Shown: piece after piece, positions 1-52,902 of the stretch | Layout of the letters: the number at the start of each line of letters is the position of its first letter | Numbering within the stretch: position 1 is the first letter of the stretch | NCBI GenBank assembly: GCA_045636365.1 | Contig: JAZTXG010000012.1 | Span: 6,559-70,558, forward strand | Origin: Eubacteriales bacterium | Lineage (GTDB): Bacteria > Bacillota > Clostridia > Oscillospirales > QAKW01 | Direction: 5' to 3' | Length of the DNA: 64,000 nucleotides | Program-made: the position numbers and the translations under genes | Notes under the pieces: model-generated | Database searches by the model: none | What the model was told of the DNA's origin: nothing | The model's input: only the letters and a program-made list of their open reading frames with translations

Positions 1-3000
1 TCAAGATCTCGCTAAAGGCAAAATCGAATTCCGCAATACCTCCATCGAGCACCTTAAAGACCAGAACGATTGCATCGAACTCACTGTTTGCCGCAATGTT
101 GGCTGCATTGCTCCAAGCGGCGGTGAAGGTACCGTCTTCTTCATTTACTGTTTGATTTTTGTTCGCGCCGAAGGCGTCGGTCAGAGTGATGGACTCCAGC
201 TTCAACAAGTTCTTATTATAAGAACCGTTGATGGTCATACCGCTCCACGCATTCAGATAATCCTTGACCGAAACGGTCACAGTGACGGTATCGCCAATCT
301 TCGCATCGGTCTTATCAGCAGTAGCAATCAAATGGGGCTGCGCCTTGACATTGACAACAACCGTTTCGCTGCGCTCCTCATAATCCCAGACAGAAACCAT
401 CGGCTCTTCGTCGAAGGCGATTGCCTGATCGATCTCTGCATAGAAGGAAATTTCACCTTCGACCTTCGGGCTATAATAGAGATTCATTAAGGTGAGGGCC
501 GTCTCTGTTGAGATGTAGTCTGTGGACACCAAAATGAAATGAACGTATCCTTCGTCCTCATTCAGGAAAACCACTCCGGTCACATCGTCCCTATCGCTCT
601 GCCACTCATCGATATCCTCTTGGTCGATGGTAACCTCGCTCTTATCATAGTACAACTTCACCGAAAGCGCTTGCACGCGATTGTTGAGGTTGTTGACAGT
701 GAGTGTCAGGGCCTCTTTCCTATTCTTGATCGCAGCATCCGCAGTGCCGATCGACAGGAACATCGGATCCATATTTTCATATTGGTTTGCGATCGTGATG
801 ATTTGATCCTCTGCCTTGGGAGCGTAGGTTTGGGTATCGACTACGGTAAAGCCGCCGTTCGAATCGGGGGTCTTAACACTGTCTGTTACAAACCCTGCAC
901 CGAATTTGGCTTCGCCGTCTTGGTATGCTTTGAAGGGGATGGAAGCAAGCAAGATCTGCTCGCGGTCATCCTGAATGTTCTCAAGGGAGATCCAGGTAAA
1001 GACAATCTTGCCGTCTCCGGAGCGGAGCAATACCTGAGCGTCCTCTCCGCCCAGCGGATTGCAGACGATATCGCTCTCTTTGATGCGGATCCGCTCTTTA
1101 TCAAATTCCAAAACGACCGGAACGGTGCACCATTCGCTGCTATATTCATTCAGATAAAGATGGAGAACACTGTCGTCGCCTTCATCCATCGCGTTGCCCT
1201 TTTCGAGGACCATGGTCAGATGAGGGAATCTTATTTTTTTAGCGTCAACGATGAGCGCCTCGGCATCCGCCACATACTCATAGGGGTCCACATCGACATT
1301 CGCGTTGCCGTCGAAGGTCTTGACCTCGGTCAACGCTGCATCGAACTGCACATCGTCTTTAAATCCGTTTGTCTTGAAGGTGATGCTCAGAAGGGTGTTG
1401 TCCTTTTCGGCATCGATATTCGCGGCGCCTGCGGGGAAGACCAAAGAGATCTTACCGTCGACCGAAGTATCTACCGTCGGGGTAATTCCGCCAAAGGCCT
1501 TGGGAACAACCTCCTCGATGGTAAATACGCTTGCATCGTAGCTCAGCTCTGCGCTGAAGGAAGACCACAGATCGCTGTAGTCCTTCAGTTTCAGCTCCAC
1601 AGTGTACTCTTCACCCTCTTGAGCTTTGCTTTCGCCGACAATCTCCAAGAAGGTAGGAGCAAACAAAACAACCGGCGCGGACACAGGCGCTTCAGAGTAA
1701 GAACCTTCCGGCGCATACATTCCGCCATCGGTGGCAGGATCTTCCACAATGATACCGTTCTCGGGGAACGCGAAGGAAACGTTGGGATCGCCTTCATCAA
1801 GAACCTCAAAGACGAGTGTCATCGCTTCAAAGTTTCTACCCAAAGCAACAGCCTCATCGTTCATCCAGGCAGCCTGGATCGTACCAGGCTTGGTTTCGTC
1901 TGCCTCGAAGTACGCGAAGCCGTCGACCGAAGAAGTTGCTTCGATGAACTTCAGCTTCGTTTGATCGTAGTTTGCGAAGATGGACATTCCCAGCCAATTG
2001 TCTTGATATTCCGAGACATTGACGGTGTATGTAATTTGCTCGCCGACCTTGACGCGATCCTTAGAAACCGTTGCTCCCAAATGAGCTTTGGAGTTATCGA
2101 TTTCCAAAATAACCGTATCGCTCACTTCAGTCGCATCGTACCAACTCTCGGGAGCGTACTCTCCGTTGGCATCCAGAATTCCGTCGGGAACAAAGGAGAA
2201 GTTGAAACTTGCTTCGCCTTCCGCCAAAACGTCGAAGACGATTACCAATGCCTCAAAATTCGGATTTTCGGTCACGATCGCATCAGCATGTGCCCAGCAG
2301 ACCTTGATCTCGCCGTTTTCGTTTTTGATCTCCGGCTCGATGACCTCGTCCTGGAAATTTTTAGGAGTGATGGTCTTCACCGCGAGCTTGGCGGGATCAT
2401 AAGTTCCTTGAATGGTCATCGCGGACCAAAGATTTGCATAATCCTTAACGTTTACACGAACGGTAACTGTCTTGCCGACATAAGCGCTGTCTTCATCCAC
2501 TTTGACTTCCAAAGAGGTTGTGACATCGTTATAAAGCAACTCTACCGTATCGGATACCTTTGCATCGGCGGCATAGGTCTCGGTGGGGACCTTATCGCCG
2601 TTTTCGTCCAGAACTCCGTCGGGGATAAAGGAGAATTCAAATTTCTCTGTAGTGTTTTCGCCGGACAAGACCTTAAAGGTCAGTTCCATTGCGGTAAACG
2701 TATCGTCTGCCATAACAACGGTATCGTCGTTGAGCCAGTTCACCGCTATTTTACCGTTTTCATCTGCAATGACCGGCTCTCCGGCAATTCCGCCATCGCT
2801 GAAAGCGGCAAATTTGCTTTCTTCTTCAATCAGTTCAAATTTTTTGGCGTCATAAGTACCCATGATGGTCATGACCGCCCAATTATCTTTGTAGTCCACT
2901 ACGTCGACCTTGACGGTGATGGTCTCGCCGAGCTTGGCGGAGTCTTCCACTACATCGACGTTCAGCATCGTTCCCTGCACAGAAGGAGCGATCGCGATGG

Positions 3001-4399
3001 TCGCTGTTTTTTCTGCGCTGTCAAAATTGGAAACGAACTCGCCGTTGGCATCTGCAATACCGTCGGGAACAAAGGAGAAGGAAAGGTTGGCATCGCCTTC
3101 TTCCTTCACCTTGAAGGTCAGGGTCAGCGCGGAGAACTCCGGCTCCATATCGACTGCGTCGACATTAATCCAGGTCACACCCAGAACGCCGTCGATGCTA
3201 TCTTCAATCACCGCTTCGGTGCCGGAGATGGTATCTTTAAAGTCGATCGGCTCGACCTTTTGCAAGTCTAATTTATCTTTATCGTAGGATCCCTTGATGG
3301 TCATGGTCGACCAGGCATCTGCATAGTCCTTGACATTGACGATGACGGTAATTTCGCCGCCGACTGTCGCGGTAGAAGGAGCAACCACTTCCAGCCCCAC
3401 AAGGGTGGTGGACTCGCTGATGACGATCTCTTTTTCTACAGGCTCTTTGGAAAAACCGGTGGTAATTTGATCCGTTTCGTTTTCGCCGAAGATGCCGTCC
3501 TCTATGAAGGAGAAGGAGAGGTTGGCATCGCCCAGCGCTTTGACATTAAAGGTCAGAGTTAAGGCTTTGAATTCTGCATCTACGTCATCGACAATATTCT
3601 CATTGACCCAGACCGCCGAGATGGTTCCGTTTTCGACCTTAAAGATGGAGTCTTCCATGATTTCGCTGTTCTTAAACGTACCCTTGACGGACCGTTCTTC
3701 GTCCAGCTCCAATACATCCTTGTTGTAAGAACCGCGGATGGAGAGGGTCGACCAATTCTTGGCATAATCCTTGACCCAGACTTCGACGGTAATTTCATCG
3801 CCGACCACCGCAGTAGACGGAACAACCACGTCCAGATAAGTGGGAGTGGCCGTATCGATCGTGATGGTTTCGGTCGCCGGCTCTACACTGTATTTCGCTG
3901 TATCCAGCGGAGCAGAACCGCCTTCGGCCGCGACCAACATTTCGCTTTCCACAAAGTTGAAAGAGATCTCCGCCTCGCCCAACGCAGCATCCGCCTTGAC
4001 GGTCAGAGGAACAACCATTAAGGTCGCACCCTCTTCCGGAGCCACATCCGAAGTGGCAACCCAACCCGCAAGGATCTTGCCGCCCGAAATATCTGCGTCC
4101 TTGACCGTCAGCTCGGTATCGCCGACGTTAAAATCATATGTCTCCGGTTCGCCATCGGGCGCGAAGAGGTCGGTGCTGTATGTACCTGCAACCGCCATCC
4201 CGCTGAGAGCGACCGTATTATGAATCGTGACAACAGCGTTGACCGCATCCCCGGGCGCGACAGAAGTCAGCGGATTGCCTTCGCCATCCACCAATTCCAC
4301 CTTCAGTTCCATCGGGTCAGAAAGCGCCGAGGAAAAGACGGACGCCATAGAAAGCAGCATAACGATTGTCACAATTGTTGCTCCTATACGTTTGAACAT
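1..4399 (-). CDS. Secreted scaffoldin-like protein with a signal peptide and about ten tandem cohesin-like modules. The 3-prime end is cut by the window edge, so it is at least 1466 aa.
   Basis: Absent from the supplied ORF track because it runs off the window. The reverse complement of 4380-4415 reads GGAGGAtctctATGTTCAAACGT. Hand translation gives MFKRIGATIVTIVMLLSMASVFSSA (signal peptide). This is followed by repeated units of about 150 aa such as VVVPSTAVVGDEITVEVWVKDYAKNWSTLSIRGSYNKDVLEL...LTLTFNVKALGDANLSFSF. I checked the frame as open at 4399-2900, 2460-2390 and 190-119. The plus-strand ORFs here (for example 539..3271) look like antisense shadows. Confidence 0.8.
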   Translation of the reverse strand, partial: MFKRIGATIVTIVMLLSMASVFSSALSDPMELKVELVDGEGNPLTSVAPGDAVNAVVTIHNTVALSGMAVAGTYSTDLFAPDGEPETYDFNVGDTELTVKDADISGGKILAGWVATSDVAPEEGATLMVVPLTVKADAALGEAEISFNFVESEMLVAAEGGSAPLDTAKYSVEPATETITIDTATPTYLDVVVPSTAVVGDEITVEVWVKDYAKNWSTLSIRGSYNKDVLELDEERSVKGTFKNSEIMEDSIFKVENGTISAVWVNENIVDDVDAEFKALTLTFNVKALGDANLSFSFIEDGIFGENETDQITTGFSKEPVEKEIVISESTTLVGLEVVAPSTATVGGEITVIVNVKDYADAWSTMTIKGSYDKDKLDLQKVEPIDFKDTISGTEAVIEDSIDGVLGVTWINVDAVDMEPEFSALTLTFKVKEEGDANLSFSFVPDGIADANGEFVSNFDSAEKTATIAIAPSVQGTMLNVDVVEDSAKLGETITVKVDVVDYKDNWAVMTIMGTYDAKKFELIEEESKFAAFSDGGIAGEPVIADENGKIAVNWLNDDTVVMADDTFTAMELTFKVLSGENTTEKFEFSFIPDGVLDENGDKVPTETYAADAKVSDTVELLYNDVTTSLEVKVDEDSAYVGKTVTVRVNVKDYANLWSAMTIQGTYDPAKLAVKTITPKNFQDEVIEPEIKNENGEIKVCWAHADAIVTENPNFEALVIVFDVLAEGEASFNFSFVPDGILDANGEYAPESWYDATEVSDTVILEIDNSKAHLGATVSKDRVKVGEQITYTVNVSEYQDNWLGMSIFANYDQTKLKFIEATSSVDGFAYFEADETKPGTIQAAWMNDEAVALGRNFEAMTLVFEVLDEGDPNVSFAFPENGIIVEDPATDGGMYAPEGSYSEAPVSAPVVLFAPTFLEIVGESKAQEGEEYTVELKLKDYSDLWSSFSAELSYDASVFTIEEVVPKAFGGITPTVDTSVDGKISLVFPAGAANIDAEKDNTLLSITFKTNGFKDDVQFDAALTEVKTFDGNANVDVDPYEYVADAEALIVDAKKIRFPHLTMVLEKGNAMDEGDDSVLHLYLNEYSSEWCTVPVVLEFDKERIRIKESDIVCNPLGGEDAQVLLRSGDGKIVFTWISLENIQDDREQILLASIPFKAYQDGEAKFGAGFVTDSVKTPDSNGGFTVVDTQTYAPKAEDQIITIANQYENMDPMFLSIGTADAAIKNRKEALTLTVNNLNNRVQALSVKLYYDKSEVTIDQEDIDEWQSDRDDVTGVVFLNEDEGYVHFILVSTDYISTETALTLMNLYYSPKVEGEISFYAEIDQAIAFDEEPMVSVWDYEERSETVVVNVKAQPHLIATADKTDAKIGDTVTVTVSVKDYLNAWSGMTINGSYNKNLLKLESITLTDAFGANKNQTVNEEDGTFTAAWSNAANIAANSEFDAIVLVFKVLDGGIAEFDFAFSEIL

Positions 4400-4488
4400 A
4401 GAGATCCTCCTTCAAATACGCACTTATAAAATAACCAAAAAAGGGTATAAATACCCCTAACGGTACGTATCCATTATTAGTTATTAAT

Positions 4489-4552
4489 ATTATAACAGAG
4501 CCGTTGTCAAATTGACATTACCTTATGTGTCTTTTTTAACACACTTTGCGTA
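4489..4552 (-). promoter_or_regulatory. Putative promoter of the scaffoldin-like gene: extended -10 (TGtTATAAT), a weak -35-position hexamer GTCAAT, and a conserved 36-nt upstream element (copy A).
   Basis: On the minus strand, TATAAT is at 4494-4489, preceded by TGt. A 16-nt spacer follows, then a hexamer at 4516-4511. The element at 4517-4552 (plus strand ATTACCTTATGTGTCTTTTTTAACACACTTTGCGTA) recurs with the same spacing at 11405-11440 and 52646-52681. Confidence 0.45.
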
Positions 4553-4620
4553 ATTTTAAAATTTATTTTGCCGCGCATAAATCGCCCCGCTTTGCCCCTT
4601 TCGCCCCCCATTTTGCAGCT

Positions 4621-4766
4621 ATATCATCACCGCAAGGTGTATATCATCACGCGCCAGCGTGTATGAAATCAACCGAAGGTTGAATGTAACCACCGTAGGT
4701 GTATGTAATCACCGCAAGGTGTATGTAACCACCGTAGGTGTATGCCATTTGCCCTGCACGGGCAAA
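4621..4766. repeat. Tandem array of seven mini-hairpins of about 20 nt each (array A).
   Basis: The units are atcaCACCgcaaGGTGtat, atcaCACGCgccaGCGTGtat, aaaTCAACCgaaGGTTGAat, gtaacCACCgtaGGTGtat, gtaatCACCgcaaGGTGtat, gtaacCACCgtaGGTGtat and TTTGCCCtgcacGGGCAAA. The AT-rich flanks are conserved. The stems vary but remain complementary. Confidence 0.7.
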
Positions 4767-4799
4767 AAAAGTGCGTCAGGAGTTCCTGACGCACTTTTT
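4766..4799 (-). terminator. Rho-independent (bidirectional-looking) terminator downstream of the 4801-5640 gene.
   Basis: AAAAAGTGCGTCAGGagttCCTGACGCACTTTTT: a perfect 10-bp GC-rich stem flanked by an A-run and a T-run, immediately after the TAA stop at 4801. Confidence 0.75.
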
Positions 4800-4800
4800 A

Positions 4801-5640
4801 TTATTCTTCTTTGGATTTTTTGCGCAGCAGCAATGCGATGGCAAAGGCGCTGGCGCTGGCAACCATCAAGGAGATCCAGAGGATCAGGTCAAAATGGTCG
4901 CCGGTATCGGCGTTATCGGAATCGGGCTTGGTTTCGGGCTTTTGCTCCGGCTTGGGTTCCGGCTCCGGCTCTGTCTCGCCCTCTCCGCCGGGCTGGCCCG
5001 GTTGCTCGGGTTCCGGTTCGGGATCGGGGGTGGGCTCGGGATCGGGGGTGGGGTCGGGATCAGGCTCGGGTCCGGGGGCAGGCTCTCCCTGCTTTTTTGC
5101 CAAAGCAAAATAGCATTTGCTGCCGCCCGCCTTAAAGATCAGTTCTCCGTCTTTGATTTCGGAGGGAATCAAGGATTTTTGACTATCGGTAGTCAGGCGG
5201 TAGACCTCTAAATCCTCGGAGGAGACCTTGATGCGAATCTCGTCCCCTTCCTCTAATTCGATGCGCTGACCGGTGGTCTTATCGCGATAATAGACCTCAA
5301 AGGGCATGGCATCTTGGGTATCCAAGCCCTCGATGCACTCTTTAAACCAATCCAATGCTTCTTTATGATCGGGTTCAAAAAACCGCACCACCAGCTCCAG
5401 CTCCCCATTGGGCTCTGCGGGAGTGACAGCTAAAGCGCCCTCTTCTACCTCAATCTTATACAAATCGTCTTGCAGAGGGGCAGTATGCTGATTGGGTTCT
5501 TCCGCAGGAACATAGGTACCCTGCACTTGGATGGGAACCTCGCCCGGCAGTTGGGTAATGGTCGTCGAATTATCCGCTTGGGCGACGATGCCCAAAGCAA
5601 GCAGCATACATATTAAAATTGCGCCGATCCTTCGCTTCAT
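4801..5640 (-). CDS. Secreted protein with a Pro/Glu/Asp-rich linker and a C-terminal tail resembling a cell-wall sorting signal.
   Basis: ORF track 4801..5646. GGAGG abuts the first ATG, so the start is more likely the MKRR ATG at 5640. Features: signal peptide [22 protein letters not shown]; linker [28 protein letters not shown]...[11 protein letters not shown]; tail NADTGD, a hydrophobic stretch [21 protein letters not shown], then RKKSKEE. Confidence 0.8.
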
Positions 5641-5670
5641 GCTCATCCTCCAACTAAATTATTGTCGCTA

Positions 5671-6192
5671 TTACTTATTCTTTACCGCGGGCTTCAAGGA
5701 GACCGAGCCGCTGCTCAAATAGGTTTCCGGCTCATAGCCCATCACCTTAAAGGCCAGCGGTTCATCGTCCGCTACCGCGCGGGAAAATTCAATGGTCTGC
5801 AGATATTCGCCGGGCTTAATTAAGCCGGTCTCGGCGATGATTTCACCCTGCGCATCCAATACACGCAATTTCAGCCAGCTTTCGTTTTTGGGAACGTTAT
5901 AGAACCAGATATCCGCTTGGTTTTGCTCATTGATCAAAACACCGCCGCAAATGTATACGGTATAGGGCAACCCCTCTTGATGGATTTTCGACCATAACAG
6001 CCCTTTTAATTCATCGGTTTCTTCCAATTTTCCCGCCACCGCCGCTTCATCAAAGGCGGGGGGGACAAATTGGGGTTGCGCTCCGGGCTTAAAATGAATC
6101 AACGCCGCAACCATCGCGCAAACCGAGACGATACAAACCGCCCCGATGACGATCAAAGCAATTTTCAGTTCTTTTCTTGAGATTCTTCGCAC
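5671..6192 (-). CDS. Single-pass (N-terminal anchor) membrane protein with an extracytoplasmic domain; paralogue of 8243..8794.
   Basis: A 173-aa ORF with a GTG start and a weak RBS. The TM segment is IALIVIGAVCIVSVCAMVAALI. The C-terminal region ADIWFYNVPKNESWLKLRVLDAQGEIIAETGLIKPGEYLQTIEF aligns with GMVYFSFTNPYESNQDMVLQVFVKDKLIAQSKLLPPGNALSQLPL of the 8243..8794 product. Confidence 0.7.
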   Translation of the reverse strand: MRRISRKELKIALIVIGAVCIVSVCAMVAALIHFKPGAQPQFVPPAFDEAAVAGKLEETDELKGLLWSKIHQEGLPYTVYICGGVLINEQNQADIWFYNVPKNESWLKLRVLDAQGEIIAETGLIKPGEYLQTIEFSRAVADDEPLAFKVMGYEPETYLSSGSVSLKPAVKNK

Positions 6193-6285
6193 GTTTTTTG
6201 ATACCTGTTCTTTCTTTTTCCCTTGGTTTCTTTCGTCAAAAACGGCTGCAGGCGGAAATTCGCCGGCAGCCGCCTAAAAATTCAT

Positions 6286-7347
6286 TTATGAAATGGTGAC
6301 AGTAAAGATACCCAGAATGCCAGCCTCTTCTTCAGTAATTCTGCCGTCAACAGTAACCGTACCGGAAATAGCACCTTTGGTGCCATCGGGATTTTCCACA
6401 TTAGCCTCATTCACAGTAGCTTTATTAACGGTAACATCTTCTACAGCTGCCTTCAATGCGGTCTCAGCACCGCCTTCAGTGTCTTTATAGGAAAGGGAAG
6501 CCTTAACATCTTGGCTGGAATGATTCTCAATATTAACGGTAAGAGTAGCTTCTTTGACAGACCATGCGCCACTCTCAGAAACATCCCACTTATGTGTTTT
6601 GGTGTTCCACTCGTTAGTATCGGCATCTATAAAGGTAAATACCGCCAAGTCATTCCAAGATAAACCAACCTTATAAGCGTGGGAATCACGAGATTCATCA
6701 ATATACTCGCTCCCCACATCGATTTTTACTTCATTGCCGGGTGCTTTATTGGTAGTAATAGTCGCTTTATTGGAAGCAGGTTCTTCGGGATCTTGAGGTT
6801 GGTCGGGGTCTTCTTCCGGCTGGACTTCGATCGGGGCGGACTCCACCTCCGCGGAACTAAACGCACTGCCATCTGTATTTACAATGGGTTCCTCTGAACC
6901 AAGTTCCGCCTGACCGTCCGGGGTGAAACCGGCAGAGATGATTGCGTTTGTCGTTTCGGCAAGTGCGGTAAATTGCAGTTGAACCAAATAATCGGCGGCG
7001 GGAACACCATCGGAGCTGATCCAGTTGATCAGAATGGTACCCTCACCGTTTTTTACATCGGCAACGACCGTTTGAATATCCTCCAAGGCAGCATTGCCGA
7101 GAACGCCGGTCTCTTTATCAAAGGACAGATAGGCGGGGTCATAGGTGACTTTTACCGTCATCGCAGACCAGGTGTTCGCGGTATAATTCAATGCATTTAC
7201 GGTGGCTGTCACCGTTTCGCCTTCCTTTACCGCAGTTTGATCTACGGTGATCGCCAAAGAGGGAGCGGTTCCTTCCGCGCTCACAAAGGCGGCCAGCCCT
7301 GCCAACAGCAGGGCGCAGATCATCAAAATGCTGAATACTCGCTTCAT
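6286..7347 (-). CDS. Secreted protein: signal peptide, one cohesin-like module, an acidic Pro-rich linker and the shared C-terminal domain (CTD).
   Basis: ORF track 6286..7362 has a TTG start that overlaps the RBS. GGAGGatatatctATG places the start at 7347 (MKRVFSILMICALLLAGLAAFVSA). The cohesin-like stretch is ITVDQTAVKEGETVTATVNALNYTANTWSAMTVKVTYDPAYLSF. The CTD at 6289-6678 is highly similar to that of 7585..8151. Confidence 0.85.
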   Translation of the reverse strand: MKRVFSILMICALLLAGLAAFVSAEGTAPSLAITVDQTAVKEGETVTATVNALNYTANTWSAMTVKVTYDPAYLSFDKETGVLGNAALEDIQTVVADVKNGEGTILINWISSDGVPAADYLVQLQFTALAETTNAIISAGFTPDGQAELGSEEPIVNTDGSAFSSAEVESAPIEVQPEEDPDQPQDPEEPASNKATITTNKAPGNEVKIDVGSEYIDESRDSHAYKVGLSWNDLAVFTFIDADTNEWNTKTHKWDVSESGAWSVKEATLTVNIENHSSQDVKASLSYKDTEGGAETALKAAVEDVTVNKATVNEANVENPDGTKGAISGTVTVDGRITEEEAGILGIFTVTIS

Positions 7348-7584
7348 AGATATATCCTCCAAAAACTATATTTGGGGTTTATTGCTCAAATATCGCCGGT
7401 CTTTTTTTGCAGGCCGGAGATAGTTCAGCCATAAACCAAAACAAATGTTTTTCGGGGCGCGGCGGCTGCAAGGATGCTCGCCGCGCCGATTTTTCATGAA
7501 AAACGAATTCGCTTAATGTAAGCTTGGCAGCATGCCAAGGGCGGATTGCCGCCCTTGGCAAACTGCTTTAGATTAAAGGATTAA

Positions 7585-8151
7585 TTAGCCCTCAACAGGA
7601 GCAGTATACTCGGCAACGGTAACAGTGAAGGTACCCATAACGCCAGCTTCTGCTTCAGTGATTCTGCCGCCAACAGTAACGGTACCGGAGATAGAACCTT
7701 CAGTGCCTTTGGGAGCTTCTTCTTCAGTCTCATTCACAGCAGCTTTATCAACAATAACATCTTCTACAGCAGCCTTCAATGCGGTTTCAGCGCCACCTGC
7801 AGCATCTTCATAGCCAAGGCTAACTTTAACATCTACGCAAGAATGGTTCTCGATATTAACGGTAAGAGCAACTTCTTCAGCAGACCAAGAACCACCCTCA
7901 GTAACATCCCACTTGTGTGTTTCGACATTCCACTCGTTTTCGTTGGCATCAGTAAAGGTGATTGCAGCCAAGGCGTCCCAAGTCAGAACAACTTTGTAGT
8001 TAGGAACATCAGTTTGCTCATCGGAGTATGCACCGGTAACTTCGATCTTAGTATTGGCATCGGGAAGAGCGGTGATATCAGCAGCAAAAGCAACAGCGGA
8101 CATAGAGGCGATCATCGCGATCGCGAGAACGATAGATAATACCTTTTTCAT
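7585..8151 (-). CDS. Small secreted protein consisting essentially of a signal peptide plus the shared CTD.
   Basis: A 188-aa ORF. RBS AAGGAG lies 9 nt before the ATG. Signal peptide MKKVLSIVLAIAMIASMSAVAFA. The CTD is YKVVLTWDALAAITFTDANENEWNVETHKWDV...LTVNIENHS...GGAETALKAAVEDV...GTFTVTV. Confidence 0.85.
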   Translation of the reverse strand: MKKVLSIVLAIAMIASMSAVAFAADITALPDANTKIEVTGAYSDEQTDVPNYKVVLTWDALAAITFTDANENEWNVETHKWDVTEGGSWSAEEVALTVNIENHSCVDVKVSLGYEDAAGGAETALKAAVEDVIVDKAAVNETEEEAPKGTEGSISGTVTVGGRITEAEAGVMGTFTVTVAEYTAPVEG

Positions 8152-8242
8152 TTTTTAAGTCTCCTTAAAATAATTTTTTATATTTGACCGCTTAACGCTC
8201 CTTGCAGCGCAAAAGCGGCTAAATACCTTAAATAAGTTTGAT

Positions 8243-8794
8243 TTATTCCTGCACCTTAACGATGAGAGGAATATCGGTTTGAAGGATGGCTTTTTCGCCG
8301 GTTTCATAATAATAGGCGGCGGTATATTTGCCATCATAGCCGCCGGCGGAAAGCTTCACACCATCCCGCAAGGGAAGCTGGGAAAGGGCATTTCCCGGGG
8401 GCAATAATTTGGATTGGGCAATCAACTTATCCTTAACAAACACCTGCAGGACCATATCCTGATTGGATTCATAGGGGTTGGTGAAGGAAAAATAGACCAT
8501 CCCATCGGAAAGATCCACACGGACCTCTTTTTGATATTGAATACTCACCGAGCCGCCGCCCTGCTCCTGCTCCAATTTCTCGTTTTCCTTATCGGAATCG
8601 GGGGTGGGGGTAGCGTTCGGTTCGATCTCCTGCGGGGCATAGTCCGGCGCAAGAGTGGGGGTGGTATCGCGGAAGAAGATGGACCAGATGGTGACACTGC
8701 AGCTGGTAATCAACAGCAACAGCAGCAAGATCAGCGCAGCAAGCATCCAGCGTTTCTTTTTGCGATTATTTTCTTGATTGACGTGCTTACTCAA
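8243..8794 (-). CDS. Single-pass (N-terminal anchor) membrane protein; paralogue of 5671..6192.
   Basis: A 183-aa ORF. RBS AGGAGG lies 6 nt before the TTG start. A basic N-terminus is followed by the TM segment WMLAALILLLLLLITS. The extracytoplasmic domain aligns with the 5671..6192 product. The gene lies 21 nt after the upstream stop, so it is probably co-transcribed. Confidence 0.75.
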   Translation of the reverse strand: MSKHVNQENNRKKKRWMLAALILLLLLLITSCSVTIWSIFFRDTTPTLAPDYAPQEIEPNATPTPDSDKENEKLEQEQGGGSVSIQYQKEVRVDLSDGMVYFSFTNPYESNQDMVLQVFVKDKLIAQSKLLPPGNALSQLPLRDGVKLSAGGYDGKYTAAYYYETGEKAILQTDIPLIVKVQE

Positions 8795-8815
8795 CGGGGA
8801 CCTCCTGCGTTATTC

Positions 8816-11296
8816 TTAAACTGCTTTATCAATAGTCACTGTAATGGTGCCGAGCACCGTCTTCGTATCGGTCGAAAGTTCTGCGCCGGCGGGCAGGTCG
8901 CCCAACTCAAATTGAACCGTTGCCGAATTATATGCATCGCCTTCGGCCTTATCGACTGTCAACGACGATACTGCAGTTCCATCCTGCTCGAATGTATGGG
9001 TCAGCCCGACAAGGTCGGTCTTCTCCGGGTTTACAGCAAATTCAAACGTCGCTGTAATATCAACCTTACCTTGGTTGGTGACGGTGATCCAATTTTCGGC
9101 TTCGCTGTCTGCATTTAAGCAGGTCCAACCGCGGCCATCCCAAATATGGTTTTGGGGATCCCAGGTGCCGAAAGAATAGGTAAATGCCATTGCGCCCCAT
9201 TCGATTTTCACCGAAATTTCCGACGCGGCCGTTTCGATCTTGACTTCGACTTCGGCGGGAGTATCTGTATAGTTATCGCCATCCAGCTCTGCGCCGTTTT
9301 GATAGTTTCCGCCTTCAAGAAACGCTACAGAAACGAACCGGCGAAGTTGCTCTTCGGTCAGGTCTTCCTGCCTTACTTTCAGCGTAAATACCATAATGTC
9401 TTGATTCGGCAAGTACATTGGCAAAGGATCGCCGTTGAACCAGCAGGCAAGCAACGTTCCTTTGGCGTGTTCGGTGATGAACTCGGAATGAGCGCCTTCA
9501 CCATCGTCGTTAAACGCGTTCTTATCTTCGACAGAAACAAACTCGAATACGTCGGAATCAAACAACGCCTTGAGGGTCATTACTTCCCAAGCGCTTGTAA
9601 AATCCTTGATCGAGACAGCAAAACGAACTTCTTTGCCCTGCTCAATAGCGCCGATTTCTTCCCCTTCGGGAACATCCACGCCGTCGATCTGATCGATCCG
9701 GATGGAGAGTTCGGGCTTGCCACGAACGGTTATGGGCTTCACGGCAGACGTTTCGATATAACCGGCAACATCATCGCCGGAAAGGTTACCCCCCGCCAGG
9801 AAAGAGGCGGTGATGGGGAATTCGGATCCGTCTACCGTATAATCACTTTTAATTGTTATGGGGATCTCAAGGATCGTTCCGCTTGAGGCGCCCAGCTTGA
9901 GATCATCGCCTTCTTCAGAGAAAATGGTGATACCAAGTTTGTTTCCGCTAATCACCGGCACAACGGCGACATCACTGTCGCCTAATGCAACGATATTATC
10001 CGTATCTACCTCAAAAACGTTTTTATTGAGGTTGACAAGGATACTCATCATCGACCACGGATCAACATAATCAGTGATGTTCACTTGAAGAGTGAATTTC
10101 TCACCGCGAGAAAAGGCGGGTTTATCTTCCTCAACCACTACAGATAAGTAGGGGAACACCTTCTGCGTTACCTTGACTTCAGCTGTACCCTCTTCGTGCT
10201 CTTCAACATAATCGTCGGCGGAGGTCAGCAGTTCTTCTTCGCCTGTCGCGGCATCGTATTTAAAGTTGCCTTCTTGCTGGAAAGAGGTCCCGATTTCGAG
10301 CGCGCTTCCCGCGCCTTGGGCTTCCAAGGTCAGCTCCAGAATATCTGCATCGGATGCACCGTCTTTCAGAATCATATTGCCCAAAGAGGGGCTGAAGAAG
10401 CAGATTGAAAGCGGTTTTGCAGCATCTTCGGTCTCTGCCACCAGCATGGAGACGGGATCCGAAGTTTCGGAGTCAACAAGATTTCCTAAGTCTTCCGAAC
10501 TTATATACTTGAATTTATTGCCATTGTATTGAAGGTCCAGAGTCATCATCATCCAGCCTTCGTAGAAATTGTTCAGGCAAACGATTGCTTTGACTTTTTC
10601 CCCTTGCTCAATTTCGGTAACCGGATTTCCGCTCTCATCCACCAACCGCATGGTCAGATGCGGCTGATACACACGGACCTCTCTTTCAAAATCGGAGGTG
10701 GCGGCATAAGCTTCGGTAGCGATGAACTCCGGTTCGTCACCAACATACCCCGCGACACTATCGTCTACAAAGGTAAAAGAGAGTTTCGCGTTATCGGTCT
10801 CCGCAATTGCTTTGAATTTCAAATCCATCAATGCGGCAGTTCCCTCTACGGCAGGGAGGTTGGTGCCTTGATTGCTCATCATAAAAACCATCAAGGAACC
10901 GCTTGCTTTATTAGACTCATCAATCGAGAGGGTGAACTCCTCGCCGATCTTCGTTTCAAAACCCTTATATTCCAGCTCCGCCGGATCATAGGTCAATTCG
11001 GCAACAAAGATCGCCCAATCGCCCCTATAATTTTCCAGCGAGACAGAAATATCAAACTCTTCGTCCAGCGAAAGATGCTCTTTCTCTGTACTCATCACCA
11101 CGGAAGTCGGCTCAGAGCCGCCTTCGGTGTTTAACAATGCGGGCTGCTCGGAAGCGTAATTATTCAGTTGAACTGTTGCATCCAACGCATCGCTCTCAAG
11201 TACGCTTTCGTCGGCAGCAGAGACGACAAAGACCGAGCATACCATGGAGCAGAGCATTGCCAGCGCAACAGCGATTGACCATACACGCTTATTCAC
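8816..11296 (-). CDS. Secreted protein with four cohesin-like modules and a divergent copy of the shared CTD.
   Basis: ORF track 8816..11365. GGAGGtatttcGTG makes GTG at 11296 the likely start (VNKRVWSIAVALAMLCSMVCSVFVVSA signal peptide). The module signatures are ISVSLENYRGDWAIFVAELTYDPAELEY, AIVCLNNFYEGWMMMTLDLQYNGNKFKY, LQVNITDYVDPWSMMSILVNLNKNVFEV and FAVSIKDFTSAWEVMTLKALFDSDVFEF. The CTD at 8819-9217 reads ISVKIEWGAMAFTYSFGTWDPQNHIWDGRGW...ITVTNQG...GTITVTI. Confidence 0.85.
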   Translation of the reverse strand: MNKRVWSIAVALAMLCSMVCSVFVVSAADESVLESDALDATVQLNNYASEQPALLNTEGGSEPTSVVMSTEKEHLSLDEEFDISVSLENYRGDWAIFVAELTYDPAELEYKGFETKIGEEFTLSIDESNKASGSLMVFMMSNQGTNLPAVEGTAALMDLKFKAIAETDNAKLSFTFVDDSVAGYVGDEPEFIATEAYAATSDFEREVRVYQPHLTMRLVDESGNPVTEIEQGEKVKAIVCLNNFYEGWMMMTLDLQYNGNKFKYISSEDLGNLVDSETSDPVSMLVAETEDAAKPLSICFFSPSLGNMILKDGASDADILELTLEAQGAGSALEIGTSFQQEGNFKYDAATGEEELLTSADDYVEEHEEGTAEVKVTQKVFPYLSVVVEEDKPAFSRGEKFTLQVNITDYVDPWSMMSILVNLNKNVFEVDTDNIVALGDSDVAVVPVISGNKLGITIFSEEGDDLKLGASSGTILEIPITIKSDYTVDGSEFPITASFLAGGNLSGDDVAGYIETSAVKPITVRGKPELSIRIDQIDGVDVPEGEEIGAIEQGKEVRFAVSIKDFTSAWEVMTLKALFDSDVFEFVSVEDKNAFNDDGEGAHSEFITEHAKGTLLACWFNGDPLPMYLPNQDIMVFTLKVRQEDLTEEQLRRFVSVAFLEGGNYQNGAELDGDNYTDTPAEVEVKIETAASEISVKIEWGAMAFTYSFGTWDPQNHIWDGRGWTCLNADSEAENWITVTNQGKVDITATFEFAVNPEKTDLVGLTHTFEQDGTAVSSLTVDKAEGDAYNSATVQFELGDLPAGAELSTDTKTVLGTITVTIDKAV

Positions 11297-11376
11297 GAAA
11301 TACCTCCACACAAAACTTTCAAAATGAATGAACCCCCGCGCCATATTGCAAAGGGGATACTTCAACCATTGACTTT

Positions 11377-47244: not shown

Positions 47245-50200
47245 TTATGCTGCGAGGGTGCGAACAAGCCATTCGTGAACGATTGCATAAACGTCAGCAA
47301 TCGCGAATTCGCCGTCCTCATTCATATCAGCATTCTTCATATTGATGGGTTTTGCATCAAGCTTTTCAGCCTTGACATACAATGCTGCGAGAGCATCGGC
47401 CAAATTAACATCGCCGTCACCGTTTGCATCGCCCAGGACACCGTCGAAACCAATGGTCGCAGTTGCGCCCGGAATTTCGATGGTGGTGCCTTCGGCATCG
47501 TTTGCTTTAGCACTCGCCACCTCAACTTTGAAGGTACCGCCCACGGCAGTAACATCTGCTGCGATGGTAACAGTTACGTCATCGCCATTGGAAACTGCAT
47601 ACTCGCCGCCGTTCCACTCAACACCATTGACATGGGTAATGGTATATGCGCCTTCGATGGTGAAGGTCAATACAGCAGTCGCCAGATTTTCAGGCAGGTC
47701 GATGACGATATCGCCATTTCCCTTGGGATTCAAGGTGATACCTGCTGCAGAAGCAGTGCCATGAATCTTATACTCTTTGACCAAGCAGCCTTCGTGTGCA
47801 CACTGTCTGTAAGACTTATTTGCATCGTCATCGTCTTCTTTCCAGCCTTCGCCGCCTTCGAAGTCATGGCCATTCTCTTTAGTTTCTTCGGCCTCTACCA
47901 TTGTGGGGTGAATCTCACAATCGAATTTCCAGAAATCGTTTTCGGTACAGTCTTCGTTGTGGACTTTTTTACCTTGGCAGGTTTCCTCATAATCGGCCCC
48001 ACAAGGTTCGCAATGAGCTACGTGTTTGCTCTCGCCGGTTGCCGAAATGGCGGAATCGTAATCCCAGTCTCTGGTGCAGCTTTCGGTCTTGGTATAACCG
48101 CAATCACCGCAAGCATAGGTATGCTTGTTTGTTTCATCCACATGGTTGCACTCGAGATTGGGATGTTCACAGACATCGATGGTTACAACGATAGCTGCAT
48201 CTTCGGTAACGGTCAGCGCGGTACCATCATATGCACCGCCCGAAGCGACTTCAACATTGACGATGGTTGTCTCGACACCATAGCCGAGTGCATCGCGCAG
48301 TTCCGCGTTTGTATATGCCTGGTTGGCATTGATATAGATGGTCTTGGTTTCCTCGCCAATGGTGGCTTCAACCTTGACAATCTTATCGGTTTCTGTACCG
48401 GTCGGGCGGATACCGCCATCCGCGGCCAGTTTGAAGTAGACGTCGCCTTCTGCTCCGGTGTTGGTTTTGTTGATCTCATAAGCTGCTGCACCTTCGGTCA
48501 TATCGCTATGAACCCAAGGATTATTTGCGCCGGCACCTGCGGTTGCACTTGTTCCAACACGATAGGATTGGGTGATATCCCCTACACCGTATACATTGCT
48601 TATATTCGCCGAGGCTGCAGTAAAGGCATCCTCGTCGGTAAAGCCAAACAGGTAAGCGGTCGCATTATCGGGATTTTTATTTGTCAGATTGATAACAATG
48701 TTTTTGAAAGAACCATTATCAGCCTGACCGGTGCTACGTCCGCCGTAAACACCATAGGCAACGTTTCTGTTGAAACCAGATTCATGGGGGTCTGTTTTAT
48801 TCACCGTTCCGTAGAAAGTAAAGCCGTCTACATTTACTACGGTTTCAGCATTGTCTGCATAAGCGCCTGCCAATGCACTAATATGATTACCTTTCACAGC
48901 CACAAGTGTTGCGCCGGACCAGACCTTATTAAAGGTCACAGTAGCTTCTTCATTAACAGCACCAAAGGTCGAAACGTTGGACGAAGCGGTGCCGGTAGTT
49001 CCGCGCATTGTACCGCTGTTGATACCAAATTCGGTAATAGTAGCTCCATCGAGAAGCGCAAACAGACCGACGTGGTTGTTTATATAATCAGCCTTGGCTC
49101 CCGGCTCGCCAACCTTAATGTTTTTAATATAAACATTCTCAAAGCCATAGCCATGACCGTTGATGGTACCGGCGAAAAATCTCAATGTACCGGCATCATC
49201 AGCATTACCCTTGCTACCCAGAGGCCACATATAGTCTGTATTTATTTCAGCCTCTTCGTCTTCGGTTGCAGCCGTATTATCTTGCGCGAAGTCGATATCA
49301 TCGATCAGGTGGAAGGTGGTATTTTCGAAATATGCACCTGCTTCGCCATCATTTGCTGCTTTATCCATTGCAAACCAGTCGGCTTTGTCTACGATCAGCC
49401 AGTTGGCTTTTGCGGGTTGATAATTCTTATATACATCGTAATCTTTGAAAGCGGGGATGCTATTCAAATATGTGGTCTCATCGAATGTCGCGGGCGCATC
49501 GTTGATCTCGATGAGCAAAGTGCCGCCGTTCATATGAGCAACTGCAGCTTCCAGCTCGGCCTTTTCTTCGCTCGTTGCCAACTCAAGCCATGCGTCCATA
49601 CCGATTTGGCCTTCGCCGGGAGTCTTGAAGTATTTAGCGTCGAATTTGGCGTTTGCCTGCAAAGCTTCGATTTCAGCAATCTTAGCTTCCAGTTGAGCTT
49701 TCAGATTGTTGATTTCTTGTTCATCATCGCCGATGGTGTAGGAAACGGTTACATCGCCTTCGATGAGATAGTTGCCTTCGCCATCCGGGTCGATCGGAGT
49801 AGGAGTTTCTTCTACGAGTTTAGAAACCACAATGTCTGTTGCACCGTTGGGAAGCAGCGCCGCTACGTCAACTGCAGCGCCAGCATTCGCATAGATGGGA
49901 TCTGCCTCTGCGTTGTTTTCCATAATGGCATACTTCACAATGCGGTCTGCTTTATCACCAAAGCGGATATCGCCGTTTTTGTTGATGGTGAAGTAGACCT
50001 CACCAATACCGCTTGCAGCGGGTTGGGCGTTGTTGATCTCCCATGCACCGATCTTATCGGAGTCAACTTCTCTATTGTTGACAGTTGTTCCTCCTGAAGT
50101 ATCGCCGCCATTTCGATAGATCGGGGCGCCTACGCTAAAATTATTGATCGCCACATAGTCCGAATACTTACTATCCGAAACATACAACGACATTGTGTCT

Positions 50201-52539
50201 GCAGGGGTACCCAGGAAAGTGGGCTTACTCAATGTGTTGTAAACATATACCGTTCTCAAGTACTGCATAATGCCGATCGCACTAGAGGATGTACTCAGCT
50301 TGCCAAAGAAATAAGCACCATTGATAGTAACCGATTGCTGCTGAGCGCGGCATACGATACCGGCAACCAAGTTGCCAGAAGATGTAATTGTTGCTCCGGA
50401 CCAGACTTTGTTAAAGGTGGGGCCGACCGAGCCGGATTTATTCGGGGCACCGAAGGTGGCAACATATCCTTCACCAGTGATACTACCGCTATCCACACCG
50501 AATTCATTGATGACCGCAGCCCCAGTCGGTGTATTGATCAAACCGAGTTCTGCGTCGTTGGAAGTAATGCTGATGTTTTGGAAGGCATTAAAATGCCCTT
50601 CAATGGTACCAGCAAAGGCACCGGTCACCGGTTTCATCGGCACTTCATTGAAATTGATATTGTCGGTTACGTGGAAGGTGTAACCTGCGAAGGTCTCTCC
50701 ATCTTCAGAAGCGTCAATCACCGCCAACCAGTCGTCGTCCTCGTTGATTGCCCAAACGTCGTTTTCGTTGTACTCGCCGAGGACATCAACCAAAGAATAG
50801 CCGGGGATCCGGTTCTCGGTTTCATTATAGGTTTCGTAGGTCTTCAGGGACAATTCATTGATTGCCTTAAGTTTTTCAGAAGCCGGAGCATTGCCGCTTA
50901 CTGTGCCTGCGACAGTTCCCAGATCAGCAGCCGACTCATTGGTCAGATAGGTCTCGTAACCATTATCCAAAATGGTTTGGTATTTTGCCCAAGCTTCAGT
51001 CACCTGCGTATTTTCATCGATGGTGACGGTGAATGTTGCATCACCTGTCAGCTTCCATCCTTCACCCTCTACAGTGGCACCGGTGATGTCACCAACAGTA
51101 ACCGCTTCTGCAGGAAGAGCACTATCAACGAGCTTAGCCAGATCGTCTTTTTTCAGTGTGTCGCCGTTGTTGACGTAGTCGAAATAATTATTCGTGCCGT
51201 CAGTCACCTTCACCTGAACGATTCTATTAGATTCTTTACCGGTCGGGCGGATGACAATGTTTTCGTTGGAGTCTTTCGTCCAGGTGTAGTAGACGGGAGA
51301 CATTGCTTCGCCCTTGGTATAGGATTTAGATACATATATATATTTTTTTACCGACGCAGTGTTACTATTGATCTTCCATGCGCCTTCTTCGGGGGAGCTA
51401 ACCGTCTCGCAACGTTCACCCAAATTTCTATCTGCAGTACAAGCCGGGTCAGTAAGGCTATAACAGTTTTCCAGCACACCATTGCCGTTTGCATGAAAGC
51501 CCGCTTCAATTGTTTGTACGCCGCCCTCGCCGACTGTAGAAGCGTCCAGCGAGTTATAAGTGGTTGTCGTGTTAACGTAACTTTGAAGACCGTAATTGCC
51601 GTAACTACCGGTCAGCTTACCGGAGAAATAAGCACCATTGATAGCTATATGGGTGCTTGCTATATGCCCTACAATACCTGTGGGCATGCCTCTAGTGAAG
51701 TTTTTTGAGGTTGCTACAAGCTCTGCGTTGGACCAAACCTTGTTTAATTCGGCATGTTGGTCAGCGGTTCCTCCAACCGGCTCGCCGAAGGTGGCGACAA
51801 TTACATAGGCCGCCTTGCCGGTCGCTGTAATGGACCCGCTATCGACACCGAATTCATTGATCTTAGCCTTGGGGCCCAGCTTACCGATCATACCGAGGAC
51901 ATAGTTGATTTTTTTAGTGTCATCTTTCAACTCGTATGTTACCGTGATATTTTTAAAGGCATACCCATGGCCTTCGATGGTACCGTTGAACGGACAAGCA
52001 GCGGCGTCACGCGCATCAGATGCGCTCAAGTTCAAGGGAGCCACCGGATCCTCGCCGGTAAAGTCAATGTTTTTGGTTACGTGGAAGGTGTAACCTTCAA
52101 ATTCGTTGGTGGCAGAAACATTAACCATCTCCCGCCAGTCTGCAGGAGCAGAGATGGACCAATTATTCCCCTTCGCGGCACTATAGCCTACCAAATCAAA
52201 CTCTTCGTGAAAAGCATAACGGGGATATTTTACGGAATCACCGTCGAAGTTCTTCCACTCGATTTTTTCCTCATCAAAGAGGCTATTCATCAGTTCTTCG
52301 ACGCTATCTTCCCCGTCGACATTATCGTCTTTTTTGTATTTTCCGGCATAATAAGCGTCTAAAACAGCCCCCATGTCCGGATCTGTGTTGTAGTCGACGA
52401 TTGCTTGGACAACCTTTTTCCAAGCATCTTCTTGATCTGGAGCCGCTGCGCTTGCGGGGATAACAAAGCAAGCCAGCATCGAAACCAGCATCGCAACGAC
52501 AGCCAAGATCGAAAGGACTCTTGTTCTTGTTGTGATCAT
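47245..52539 (-). CDS. Giant secreted surface protein (1764 aa): three GLUG/beta-helix-like modules, a Cys/His-rich segment, an Ig/cohesin-like module and a C-terminal dockerin.
   Basis: RBS AAGGAGG lies 9 nt before the ATG. Signal peptide MITTRTRVLSILAVVAMLVSMLACFVIPASA. The three modules are marked by GYTFHVTKNIDF...FNGTIEGHGYAFKNITV, GYTFHVTDNINF...FAGTIEGHFNAFQNISI and TTFHLIDDIDF...FAGTINGHGYGFENVYI. Each is followed by (I/V)(N/T)EFG(V/I)(D/N)SG(S/T) and FNKVWS. Confidence 0.9.
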   Translation of the reverse strand: MITTRTRVLSILAVVAMLVSMLACFVIPASAAAPDQEDAWKKVVQAIVDYNTDPDMGAVLDAYYAGKYKKDDNVDGEDSVEELMNSLFDEEKIEWKNFDGDSVKYPRYAFHEEFDLVGYSAAKGNNWSISAPADWREMVNVSATNEFEGYTFHVTKNIDFTGEDPVAPLNLSASDARDAAACPFNGTIEGHGYAFKNITVTYELKDDTKKINYVLGMIGKLGPKAKINEFGVDSGSITATGKAAYVIVATFGEPVGGTADQHAELNKVWSNAELVATSKNFTRGMPTGIVGHIASTHIAINGAYFSGKLTGSYGNYGLQSYVNTTTTYNSLDASTVGEGGVQTIEAGFHANGNGVLENCYSLTDPACTADRNLGERCETVSSPEEGAWKINSNTASVKKYIYVSKSYTKGEAMSPVYYTWTKDSNENIVIRPTGKESNRIVQVKVTDGTNNYFDYVNNGDTLKKDDLAKLVDSALPAEAVTVGDITGATVEGEGWKLTGDATFTVTIDENTQVTEAWAKYQTILDNGYETYLTNESAADLGTVAGTVSGNAPASEKLKAINELSLKTYETYNETENRIPGYSLVDVLGEYNENDVWAINEDDDWLAVIDASEDGETFAGYTFHVTDNINFNEVPMKPVTGAFAGTIEGHFNAFQNISITSNDAELGLINTPTGAAVINEFGVDSGSITGEGYVATFGAPNKSGSVGPTFNKVWSGATITSSGNLVAGIVCRAQQQSVTINGAYFFGKLSTSSSAIGIMQYLRTVYVYNTLSKPTFLGTPADTMSLYVSDSKYSDYVAINNFSVGAPIYRNGGDTSGGTTVNNREVDSDKIGAWEINNAQPAASGIGEVYFTINKNGDIRFGDKADRIVKYAIMENNAEADPIYANAGAAVDVAALLPNGATDIVVSKLVEETPTPIDPDGEGNYLIEGDVTVSYTIGDDEQEINNLKAQLEAKIAEIEALQANAKFDAKYFKTPGEGQIGMDAWLELATSEEKAELEAAVAHMNGGTLLIEINDAPATFDETTYLNSIPAFKDYDVYKNYQPAKANWLIVDKADWFAMDKAANDGEAGAYFENTTFHLIDDIDFAQDNTAATEDEEAEINTDYMWPLGSKGNADDAGTLRFFAGTINGHGYGFENVYIKNIKVGEPGAKADYINNHVGLFALLDGATITEFGINSGTMRGTTGTASSNVSTFGAVNEEATVTFNKVWSGATLVAVKGNHISALAGAYADNAETVVNVDGFTFYGTVNKTDPHESGFNRNVAYGVYGGRSTGQADNGSFKNIVINLTNKNPDNATAYLFGFTDEDAFTAASANISNVYGVGDITQSYRVGTSATAGAGANNPWVHSDMTEGAAAYEINKTNTGAEGDVYFKLAADGGIRPTGTETDKIVKVEATIGEETKTIYINANQAYTNAELRDALGYGVETTIVNVEVASGGAYDGTALTVTEDAAIVVTIDVCEHPNLECNHVDETNKHTYACGDCGYTKTESCTRDWDYDSAISATGESKHVAHCEPCGADYEETCQGKKVHNEDCTENDFWKFDCEIHPTMVEAEETKENGHDFEGGEGWKEDDDDANKSYRQCAHEGCLVKEYKIHGTASAAGITLNPKGNGDIVIDLPENLATAVLTFTIEGAYTITHVNGVEWNGGEYAVSNGDDVTVTIAADVTAVGGTFKVEVASAKANDAEGTTIEIPGATATIGFDGVLGDANGDGDVNLADALAALYVKAEKLDAKPINMKNADMNEDGEFAIADVYAIVHEWLVRTLAA
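47248..47433 (-). other. Type-I-like dockerin module (two EF-hand-like Ca-binding repeats) at the C-terminus of the giant protein.
   Basis: GDANGDGDVNLADALAALYVKAEKLDAKPINMKNADMNEDGEFAIADVYAIVHEWL contains duplicated D-x-N-x-D-G-x-x-x-x-x-D loops, each followed by a helix. Confidence 0.75.
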
Positions 52540-52881: not shown

Positions 52882-52902
52882 GTTTTATTGGTTTGTGTGA
52901 TT

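Follow-up and report, generated by a model that had tools for sequence, protein, structure and literature searches.

A scaffoldin gene cut by the edge of the window

We analyzed a 64,000-nucleotide stretch from an uncultured Clostridia lineage (Eubacteriales bacterium, GenBank assembly GCA_045636365.1, contig JAZTXG010000012.1, positions 6,559 to 70,558), referred to below as the window, and focused on a gene at its left edge that encodes a predicted scaffoldin—a protein composed largely of tandem cohesin modules. The scaffoldin gene is the last of a seven-gene cluster on the minus strand (4801-11365 plus the scaffoldin gene itself), and its frame is free of stops from 4399 to 1, over 1,466 codons of the window translation, a run with a chance probability of about (61/64)^1466, or ~1e-31. 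A ribosome-binding site (RBS), GGAGGA, lies at 4406-4411, 6-7 nt 5' of the ATG at 4399, and the encoded N-terminus, MFKRIGATIVTIVMLLSMASVFSSA/LS, reads on inspection as a Sec signal peptide. This frame, with its RBS, start codon, and signal peptide, had been proposed in a first-pass annotation made from the letters alone, and it was borne out, with no in-frame stop before coordinate 1; the gene is missing from the open reading frame (ORF) track, which does not list ORFs extending past the end of the window.

The visible frame corresponds to the first 77% of a 1,900-codon gene, the remainder of which lies beyond coordinate 1. That remainder could be read from a protein database entry (P0001), a 1,900-aa protein that is 100% identical to the window frame and is encoded on an 80,854-bp NCBI contig. 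Past the window edge, the protein continues with the rest of the tenth module, a Cys-rich spacer (~aa 1494-1670) of two and a half repeats with the pattern H..KH..TC..GCG..KE..C, and three S-layer homology (SLH) repeats (PF00395, 99.4 bits in three stretches, all outside the window). SLH is the only Pfam family that the full-length protein adds to Cohesin; of the C-terminal ends that the first-pass annotation had suggested looking for, it is therefore SLH that is found, and neither a sortase signal nor a dockerin. On these matches, the protein is predicted to be an SLH-anchored scaffoldin with ten cohesins and no catalytic domain.

Upstream of the gene, we noted a sigma-70-like site with a TG element (ATGTCA-18-TATAAT, 4518-4489, minus strand) and, at 4766-4799, a terminator-like hairpin that closes the preceding gene, both of them consensus matches only. 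Given these two elements, the scaffoldin gene probably has its own promoter. The leader between the promoter-like site and the RBS also contains a hairpin with a trailing T-run (4458-4441, minus strand, likewise a consensus match), and two copies of the direct repeat GTGATGATATA lie around 4610-4650, upstream of that hairpin; the hairpin with its T-run and the repeat may be candidate regulatory elements.

Ten divergent cohesin modules

In a Pfam search, the visible protein matched Cohesin (PF00963) in seven stretches at 137.2 bits (E = 5.5e-40; gathering cut-off, 24.1), and no other family passed its gathering cut-off across these 1,466 aa. The same scan returned no catalytic domain there, as had been expected from the sequence. 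Internal repeats were not reported by a BLASTP self-comparison of the scaffoldin; modules were delimited with a hidden Markov model (HMM) built from the ten and then compared by hhalign. Where the first-pass annotation had counted about ten cohesin-like modules, this internal HMM gives exactly ten, each of ~145 residues—nine of them whole in the window, together with 114 of the ~142 residues of the tenth. Modules 3, 4, 5, 6, 7, and 10 singly exceed the Pfam cut-off (24.7-41.3 bits), and modules 1, 2, 8, and 9 singly fall below it; compared with the Pfam-positive modules as profiles of positional orthologues, these four reach hhalign probabilities of 97-100%. Judged from these profiles, all ten modules are homologous to one another. 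They do not share every landmark, however: the two motifs that had been ascribed to each module characterize modules 2-7 and 10, with the DY..NWS type clear in these and altered or absent in modules 1, 8, and 9. NCBIfam yielded no useful match for any of the seven cluster proteins, the scaffoldin included, or for the dockerin-bearing protein described below.

We modelled one module, module 5, with AlphaFold2 (AF2), obtaining a beta-sandwich of nine main strands at a predicted local distance difference test score (pLDDT) of 93.9. When this model was compared with the PDB using Foldseek, 42 of the 43 top matches were cohesins, with types I, II, and III all represented (probability 1.0, TM-score 0.6-0.74, sequence identity 10-24%); the exception, at rank 25, was the CLIPPER domain of a fibrillar adhesin (9ifr, TMq 0.65, TMt 0.74). 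Likewise, the module profile retrieved nothing but cohesins from the PDB sequences, with an Acetivibrio cellulolyticus type II cohesin as the best match (33 bits, 24% identity) and type I cohesins close behind. The structural check proposed for a single module thus returned cohesin almost throughout, and the possibility that the modules belong to some other Ig-like family, which had been named as grounds for rejecting the assignment, was not upheld by either Pfam or Foldseek. The type of cohesin is less clear-cut, as the Foldseek list mixes all three types and the model of module 5 is compact in the manner of type I, lacking the helix and beta-flaps of type II (a single 3-residue helix by DSSP).

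Position-wise conservation among relatives

A set of 5.8 billion clustered proteins yielded only ten relatives of the scaffoldin. Nine of these are close, with 44-73% identity and 7-11 modules; all nine share the start MFKR(I/V)GATI, and SLH is present in every one of the eight whose C-terminus is complete. A single record bears a name, 'S-layer homology domain-containing protein [Clostridia bacterium]', the others being nameless. The sole match among GTDB representatives is a metagenome-assembled genome (MAG) of an uncultured Clostridia, and the nearest relatives derive from metagenomes of the ruminant gastrointestinal tract (XIEF21 records).

Within the scaffoldin, modules are 15-50% identical to each other. 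In comparison with an orthologue of 54% overall identity (P0005), modules at the same position are 48-68% identical, against 14-47% for modules at other positions, and the order of modules 1 to 10 is kept in 9/9 close homologues, barring single losses or duplications. Because orthology is position-wise across the relatives, the array is old, with each position under its own constraint, and these sequence comparisons suggest that the ten cohesins differ in specificity.

Table 1. Coordinates and supporting evidence for the scaffoldin gene, its modules, and other features of the window
Feature	Coordinates	Strand	Evidence
Scaffoldin gene, codons 1-1466 (signal peptide, nine whole cohesin modules, most of the tenth)	1..4399	-	Open frame; Pfam Cohesin; 100% identity to P0001
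Signal peptide, aa 1-27, cleavage likely after SSA	4319..4399	-	Inspection; N-terminus kept in P0002-P0010
Cohesin module 1, aa 28-185, divergent, without DY..NWS motif	3845..4318	-	Module HMM; hhalign probability 98.6%
Cohesin module 2, aa 185-331	3407..3847	-	Module HMM; hhalign probability 100%
Cohesin module 3, aa 332-474	2978..3406	-	Pfam Cohesin, 24.7 bits alone
Cohesin module 4, aa 475-625	2525..2977	-	Pfam Cohesin, 28.8 bits
Cohesin module 5, aa 626-769 (the modelled one)	2093..2524	-	Pfam Cohesin, 41.3 bits; AF2; Foldseek
Cohesin module 6, aa 770-914	1658..2092	-	Pfam Cohesin, 26.3 bits
Cohesin module 7, aa 914-1055	1235..1660	-	Pfam Cohesin, 32.8 bits
Cohesin module 8, aa 1058-1205, divergent	785..1228	-	No Pfam match alone; HMM of modules 3-7 and 10, 46 bits; hhalign probability 98.2%
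Cohesin module 9, aa 1211-1353, the furthest diverged (15-27% identity to other modules)	341..769	-	hhalign probability 97.3%; identity matrix
Cohesin module 10, aa 1353-1466 of 1353-1494, cut by window edge	1..343	-	Pfam Cohesin, 37 bits; whole in P0001
Upstream control region (RBS, promoter-like site, leader hairpin, terminator-like hairpin)	4400..4800	-	Consensus matches only
Pro/Glu-rich protein with C-terminal membrane anchor	4801-5646	-	Cluster gene, order conserved
Second single-pass membrane protein	5671-6192	-	Cluster gene, order conserved
1-cohesin protein with Trp-rich domain	6286-7362	-	Pfam Cohesin; HMMs
Stand-alone Trp-rich-domain protein, 188 aa, secreted	7585-8151	-	Trp-rich-domain HMM
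Single-pass membrane protein	8243-8794	-	Cluster gene, order conserved
4-cohesin protein with C-terminal Trp-rich domain	8816-11365	-	Pfam Cohesin; module and Trp-rich-domain HMMs
Surface-polysaccharide locus	18558-37916		Gene content
1,764-aa secreted protein with C-terminal dockerin	47245..52539	-	Pfam Dockerin_1, 26.2 bits, aa 1702-1750

A conserved gene cluster and a candidate cargo protein

The gene order of the seven-gene cluster (Table 1) is the same in a ruminant-gut MAG, GCA_017506005.1 (loci L002/L003), and in the far more distant GCA_052831025.1 (L005). Its best-conserved members are the two small membrane proteins, which are 93% and 82% identical to their counterparts in the ruminant MAG and 59% identical to those of the distant MAG; for comparison, identity to the ruminant MAG is 54% for the scaffoldin and 37-41% for the other cohesin and Trp-rich-domain proteins. 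Neither membrane protein has a family match, and the two may act in assembly or export. The secreted product of the gene next to the scaffoldin gene (4801-5646) consists of a Pro/Glu/Asp-rich stalk that ends in ...NADTGD, a hydrophobic segment, and KKSKEE; by sequence, this end resembles a sortase-type or membrane-anchor sorting signal, though without a canonical LPxTG. In the ruminant MAG locus L002, APH/choline-kinase-like and nucleotidyltransferase genes follow directly downstream of the scaffoldin gene.

Three copies of a Trp-rich domain of ~150 residues are encoded in the cluster (7585-8151, 6286-6750, and 8816-9268, all minus strand): both smaller cohesin proteins end in it, and the 188-aa protein consists of the domain alone. 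The domain has neither a Pfam match nor a PDB sequence match, and its AF2 model, a beta-sandwich at pLDDT 83.8, brought up no significant neighbour among PDB structures. Relatives occur in 1,446 representative protein clusters (E <= 1e-3) and are mostly stand-alone secreted proteins of 170-190 aa, with some fused to ubiquitin-like, BspA-LRR, GDSL-lipase, GLUG, or cohesin domains. We also considered the domain as a dedicated cohesin ligand, an idea that lost support when cohesins were found in only 4 of its 150 best representative relatives.

Outside the cluster, the window encodes a secreted protein of 1,764 aa that ends in a dockerin, whose two canonical calcium-loop motifs are the sole dockerin-type matches in a six-frame scan of the window. 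This dockerin gives weak PDB matches to dockerins of Clostridium thermocellum. The rest of the protein comprises three ~400-residue repeats (~aa 112-512, 570-941, and 1018-1455; ~30% mutually identical), followed by a Cys-rich segment and a small beta-rich segment that precedes the dockerin. Outside the dockerin, there is no match in Pfam, NCBIfam, or the PDB, and thus no recognizable enzyme domain; the repeat motif F.GTIEGHGY.F.NI may resemble that of beta-helix proteins of the GLUG type. A small family of such proteins in Clostridia MAGs retains the C-terminal dockerin, and one member (P0019) shares its metagenome sample of origin with P0005, the scaffoldin orthologue. We regard the 1,764-aa protein as a candidate ligand of the cohesins. 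In the related loci L001-L007, no dockerin was found besides that of P0019; a 1,340-aa EEP-domain protein beside P0019, credited with a 'faint' dockerin in a precomputed table, has no dockerin motif in its sequence and was discounted as cargo.

The scaffoldin and the 1,764-aa protein have one further feature in common, namely a Cys/His-rich repeat (H..KH..TC..CG...E..C) that precedes the C-terminal module in both (aa ~1457-1585 of the dockerin protein). Pairwise similarity between the two sets of repeats is weak (E = 0.002), and the repeat might be a metal-binding spacer.

Comparison with described scaffoldins

The closest described counterpart is ScaB of Pseudobacteroides (Bacteroides) cellulosolvens, which combines ten type I cohesins with SLH (PMC5590126). 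Like ScaB, the present protein has a signal peptide, ten tandem cohesins, no catalytic domain, and a C-terminal SLH, and its gene lies beside another multi-cohesin gene (PMC5590126). The two differ in several respects. Whereas the cohesins of ScaB bind the dockerin of the primary scaffoldin ScaA1, the adjacent 4-cohesin protein here is without a dockerin; the modules here are not assignable to type I, are just 12-24% identical to solved cohesins, and are far more diverged from each other; and a Cys-rich repeat spacer stands before the SLH repeats. Also in contrast to ScaB, the host belongs to an uncultured Clostridia lineage, and no cellulase was seen in the window.

A second group of anchors includes OlpB, Orf2p, and SdbA of Acetivibrio (Clostridium) thermocellum and ScaC of A. 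cellulolyticus—proteins with an SLH anchor and 1-7 linker-separated type II cohesins that bind X-dockerin type II partners. The shared plan is one of cohesins followed by a triple SLH that serves as a wall anchor for dockerin partners (for general statements, see PMC5590126). Unlike these anchors, the present protein carries ten near-linkerless cohesins, and its modelled module is without the type II helix and beta-flaps, despite the type II cohesin that stands as the best sequence match at 24% identity.

Cohesin-dockerin systems also exist outside cellulosomes, as in the amylosome of Ruminococcus bromii. The Limousia mucinolysome employs dockerin-bearing scaffoldins with up to 12 cohesins, an LPxTG/sortase-anchored scaffoldin, and carbohydrate-active enzymes that degrade mucin (PMC12632915), and Minor et al. 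(2024) describe 'scaffoldin-containing' microbes with non-cellulosomal cohesin systems (PMC11557425). The present system resembles these in having multi-cohesin scaffoldins in gut Clostridia, and in those systems the cargo is non-cellulase. It does not belong to the Limousia type of mucinolysome, as SLH takes the place of LPxTG/sortase, no scaffoldin in the cluster bears a dockerin, and no dockerin-fused carbohydrate-active enzyme was seen. The same authors who described the 'scaffoldin-containing' microbes define a cellulosome by at least one multi-cohesin scaffoldin together with at least one dockerin-fused glycoside hydrolase (PMC11557425), and among the ~51 ORFs of the window, there is no dockerin-fused glycoside hydrolase.

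A probable anchoring scaffoldin and its alternatives

We consider it probable that the gene encodes a cell-surface anchoring scaffoldin, held to the wall by SLH, whose cohesins bind dockerin proteins and whose diverged modules probably choose different partners. By analogy with established SLH proteins, the SLH triplet would bind non-covalently to a secondary cell-wall polymer, so that the cohesin array would project from the wall; by analogy with established cohesins, each module would bind the calcium-dependent dockerin of another secreted protein. Since the modules are diverged yet conserved by position, they are probably not all binding the same dockerin. Strongly diverged modules would then receive more than one kind of dockerin, and the platform may assemble a defined, rather than random, set of partners.

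Several observations weigh against an anchoring scaffoldin of this kind. The 8-3-6-5 face, the presumed dockerin-binding side, shows no significant excess of conservation over the opposite sheet (surface-residue conservation among positional orthologues of 0.51 vs 0.45, p = 0.32). The modules abut with almost no linkers, lacking the Pro/Thr linkers typical of scaffoldins, an arrangement that would also fit a rigid stalk. The 1,764-aa protein is the only dockerin protein in the 64-kb window, and no cohesin protein of the cluster has a dockerin by Pfam or six-frame scan, so that the usual pairing of primary to anchoring scaffoldin is not visible. Finally, no CsaB-type pyruvyl-transferase gene, associated with synthesis of the SLH ligand, was seen in the window.

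As to what the platform would display, the sole candidate cargo is without a recognizable enzyme domain, and we therefore consider the display of non-cellulase proteins at least as likely as a classical cellulosome. A true plant-fibre cellulosome in a fibrolytic host is in our estimation rather unlikely. In such a case the protein would be the anchoring scaffoldin, and its cohesins would bind either a primary scaffoldin, by its dockerin, or glycoside hydrolases fused to dockerins, with the genes for these partners lying elsewhere in the genome. In favour of this reading are a layout identical to those of ScaB from P. cellulosolvens and the OlpB-type anchors, and the ruminant-gut origin of the closest relatives. 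Known cellulosome producers have clustered scaffoldin genes and scattered dockerin genes, and the absence of the latter from one window accordingly says little (PMC5590126). On the other side, no glycoside-hydrolase domain was found in the ~51 scanned ORFs, the neighbouring cohesin proteins have neither a dockerin nor a Pfam-recognizable carbohydrate-binding module, and the only dockerin proteins in the window and the ~115 kb of related loci are giants without a recognizable enzyme domain; moreover, non-cellulosomal scaffoldin systems are already documented (PMC11557425, PMC12632915).

A more far-reaching version of the anchoring-scaffoldin reading, which we put forward tentatively and do not favour, is that the seven-gene cluster constitutes a system for surface assembly, self-contained and so far undescribed, in uncultured Clostridia of gut or rumen, in which the ten mutually divergent but position-conserved cohesins would specify an ordered, non-cellulosomal complex. 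Its ligands would include the giant dockerin-tipped proteins and perhaps the Trp-rich domain, which occupies the dockerin's usual place on the smaller cohesin proteins of the cluster.

It is quite improbable that the modules are purely structural, forming a fibrillar adhesin or an S-layer-associated stalk that binds no dockerin. Near-linkerless tandem modules on a wall anchor, the Foldseek match to the CLIPPER stalk domain at rank 25, and the lack of significant excess conservation on the presumed binding face are what such a stalk would lead one to expect. Stalk repeats of fibrillar adhesins are usually near-identical, whereas the modules here are 15-50% identical with each position conserved, and their sequence matches are specifically to Cohesin. 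Nor is there a distinct adhesive tip, as module 1 directly follows the signal peptide, and the contig also encodes a dockerin protein.

Lastly, the reading in which a 910-aa plus-strand ORF (539-3271) would be genuine and the minus-strand frame an artefact can be dismissed almost entirely: long and beginning with ATG as it is, the ORF is register-locked to a minus-strand frame backed by Pfam, the PDB, and homologues, it is open because TTA, CTA, and TCA—stops when read antisense—make up just 5 of the 1,466 sense codons of the scaffoldin gene, and its product, rich in Leu, Gly, Ile, Val, Asp, and Arg, is what the antisense of a gene rich in Asp, Glu, Val, Thr, and Ala should give. This product, which the first-pass annotation had already found odd, is an antisense shadow.

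Multi-cohesin scaffoldins form the backbone of cellulosomes and of the amylosome and mucinolysome complexes, and scaffoldins of this kind are well known; recent work describes cohesin systems outside cellulosomes in gut Clostridia as well (PMC11557425, PMC12632915). What is new here is an essentially unannotated scaffoldin of an uncultured Clostridia lineage, with several unusual features: divergent yet position-conserved modules, dockerin-less neighbours with a new domain, a Cys-rich spacer, and a candidate cargo protein devoid of recognizable enzyme domains. Very large scaffoldins are few, the record for cultured bacteria in 2017 standing at ten or eleven cohesins (PMC5590126); with this scaffoldin and its 7- to 11-module relatives, an uncultured lineage of ruminant-gut Clostridia would build an equally large anchor. 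If the cargo is non-cellulolytic or the specificities are distinct, this would be a natural case of ordered, multi-specificity surface display and would supply designer scaffolds with orthogonal cohesin-dockerin pairs. If, on the contrary, the cargo consists of ordinary fibre-degrading enzymes, the lineage would be one more cellulosome producer for rumen ecology.

Remainder of the window

Other content of the window includes housekeeping genes, an Rnf complex, and the surface-polysaccharide locus. From a capsule-type locus and the lack of glycoside hydrolases, the first-pass annotation had suggested a non-cellulolytic organism; both observations stand, with glycoside-hydrolase domains in 0 of the ~51 ORFs scanned, but the step to lifestyle is beyond the reach of 64 kb, because dockerin genes are scattered genome-wide in known cellulosome producers (PMC5590126). 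The polysaccharide locus encodes two CapD-like dehydratases, a sugar transferase, GT4 glycosyltransferases, a Wzy-like polymerase, a flippase, LicD, a fused nucleotidyltransferase/choline-kinase, an SSF transporter, a PglD-like acetyltransferase, and two UDP-GlcNAc 2-epimerases. The presence of LicD and choline-kinase/cytidylyltransferase genes suggests a phosphocholine-decorated wall polymer.

The only Rfam match in the window is one tRNA gene at 17117-17202 on the plus strand. Antisense shadows recur elsewhere: a 940-aa plus-strand shadow ORF lies opposite the gene for the 1,764-aa dockerin protein, and a 723-aa plus-strand ORF at 52588-54759 is a shadow of the real gene there, a minus-strand GTP-dependent phosphoenolpyruvate carboxykinase at 52903-54684 (Pfam, 550 bits).

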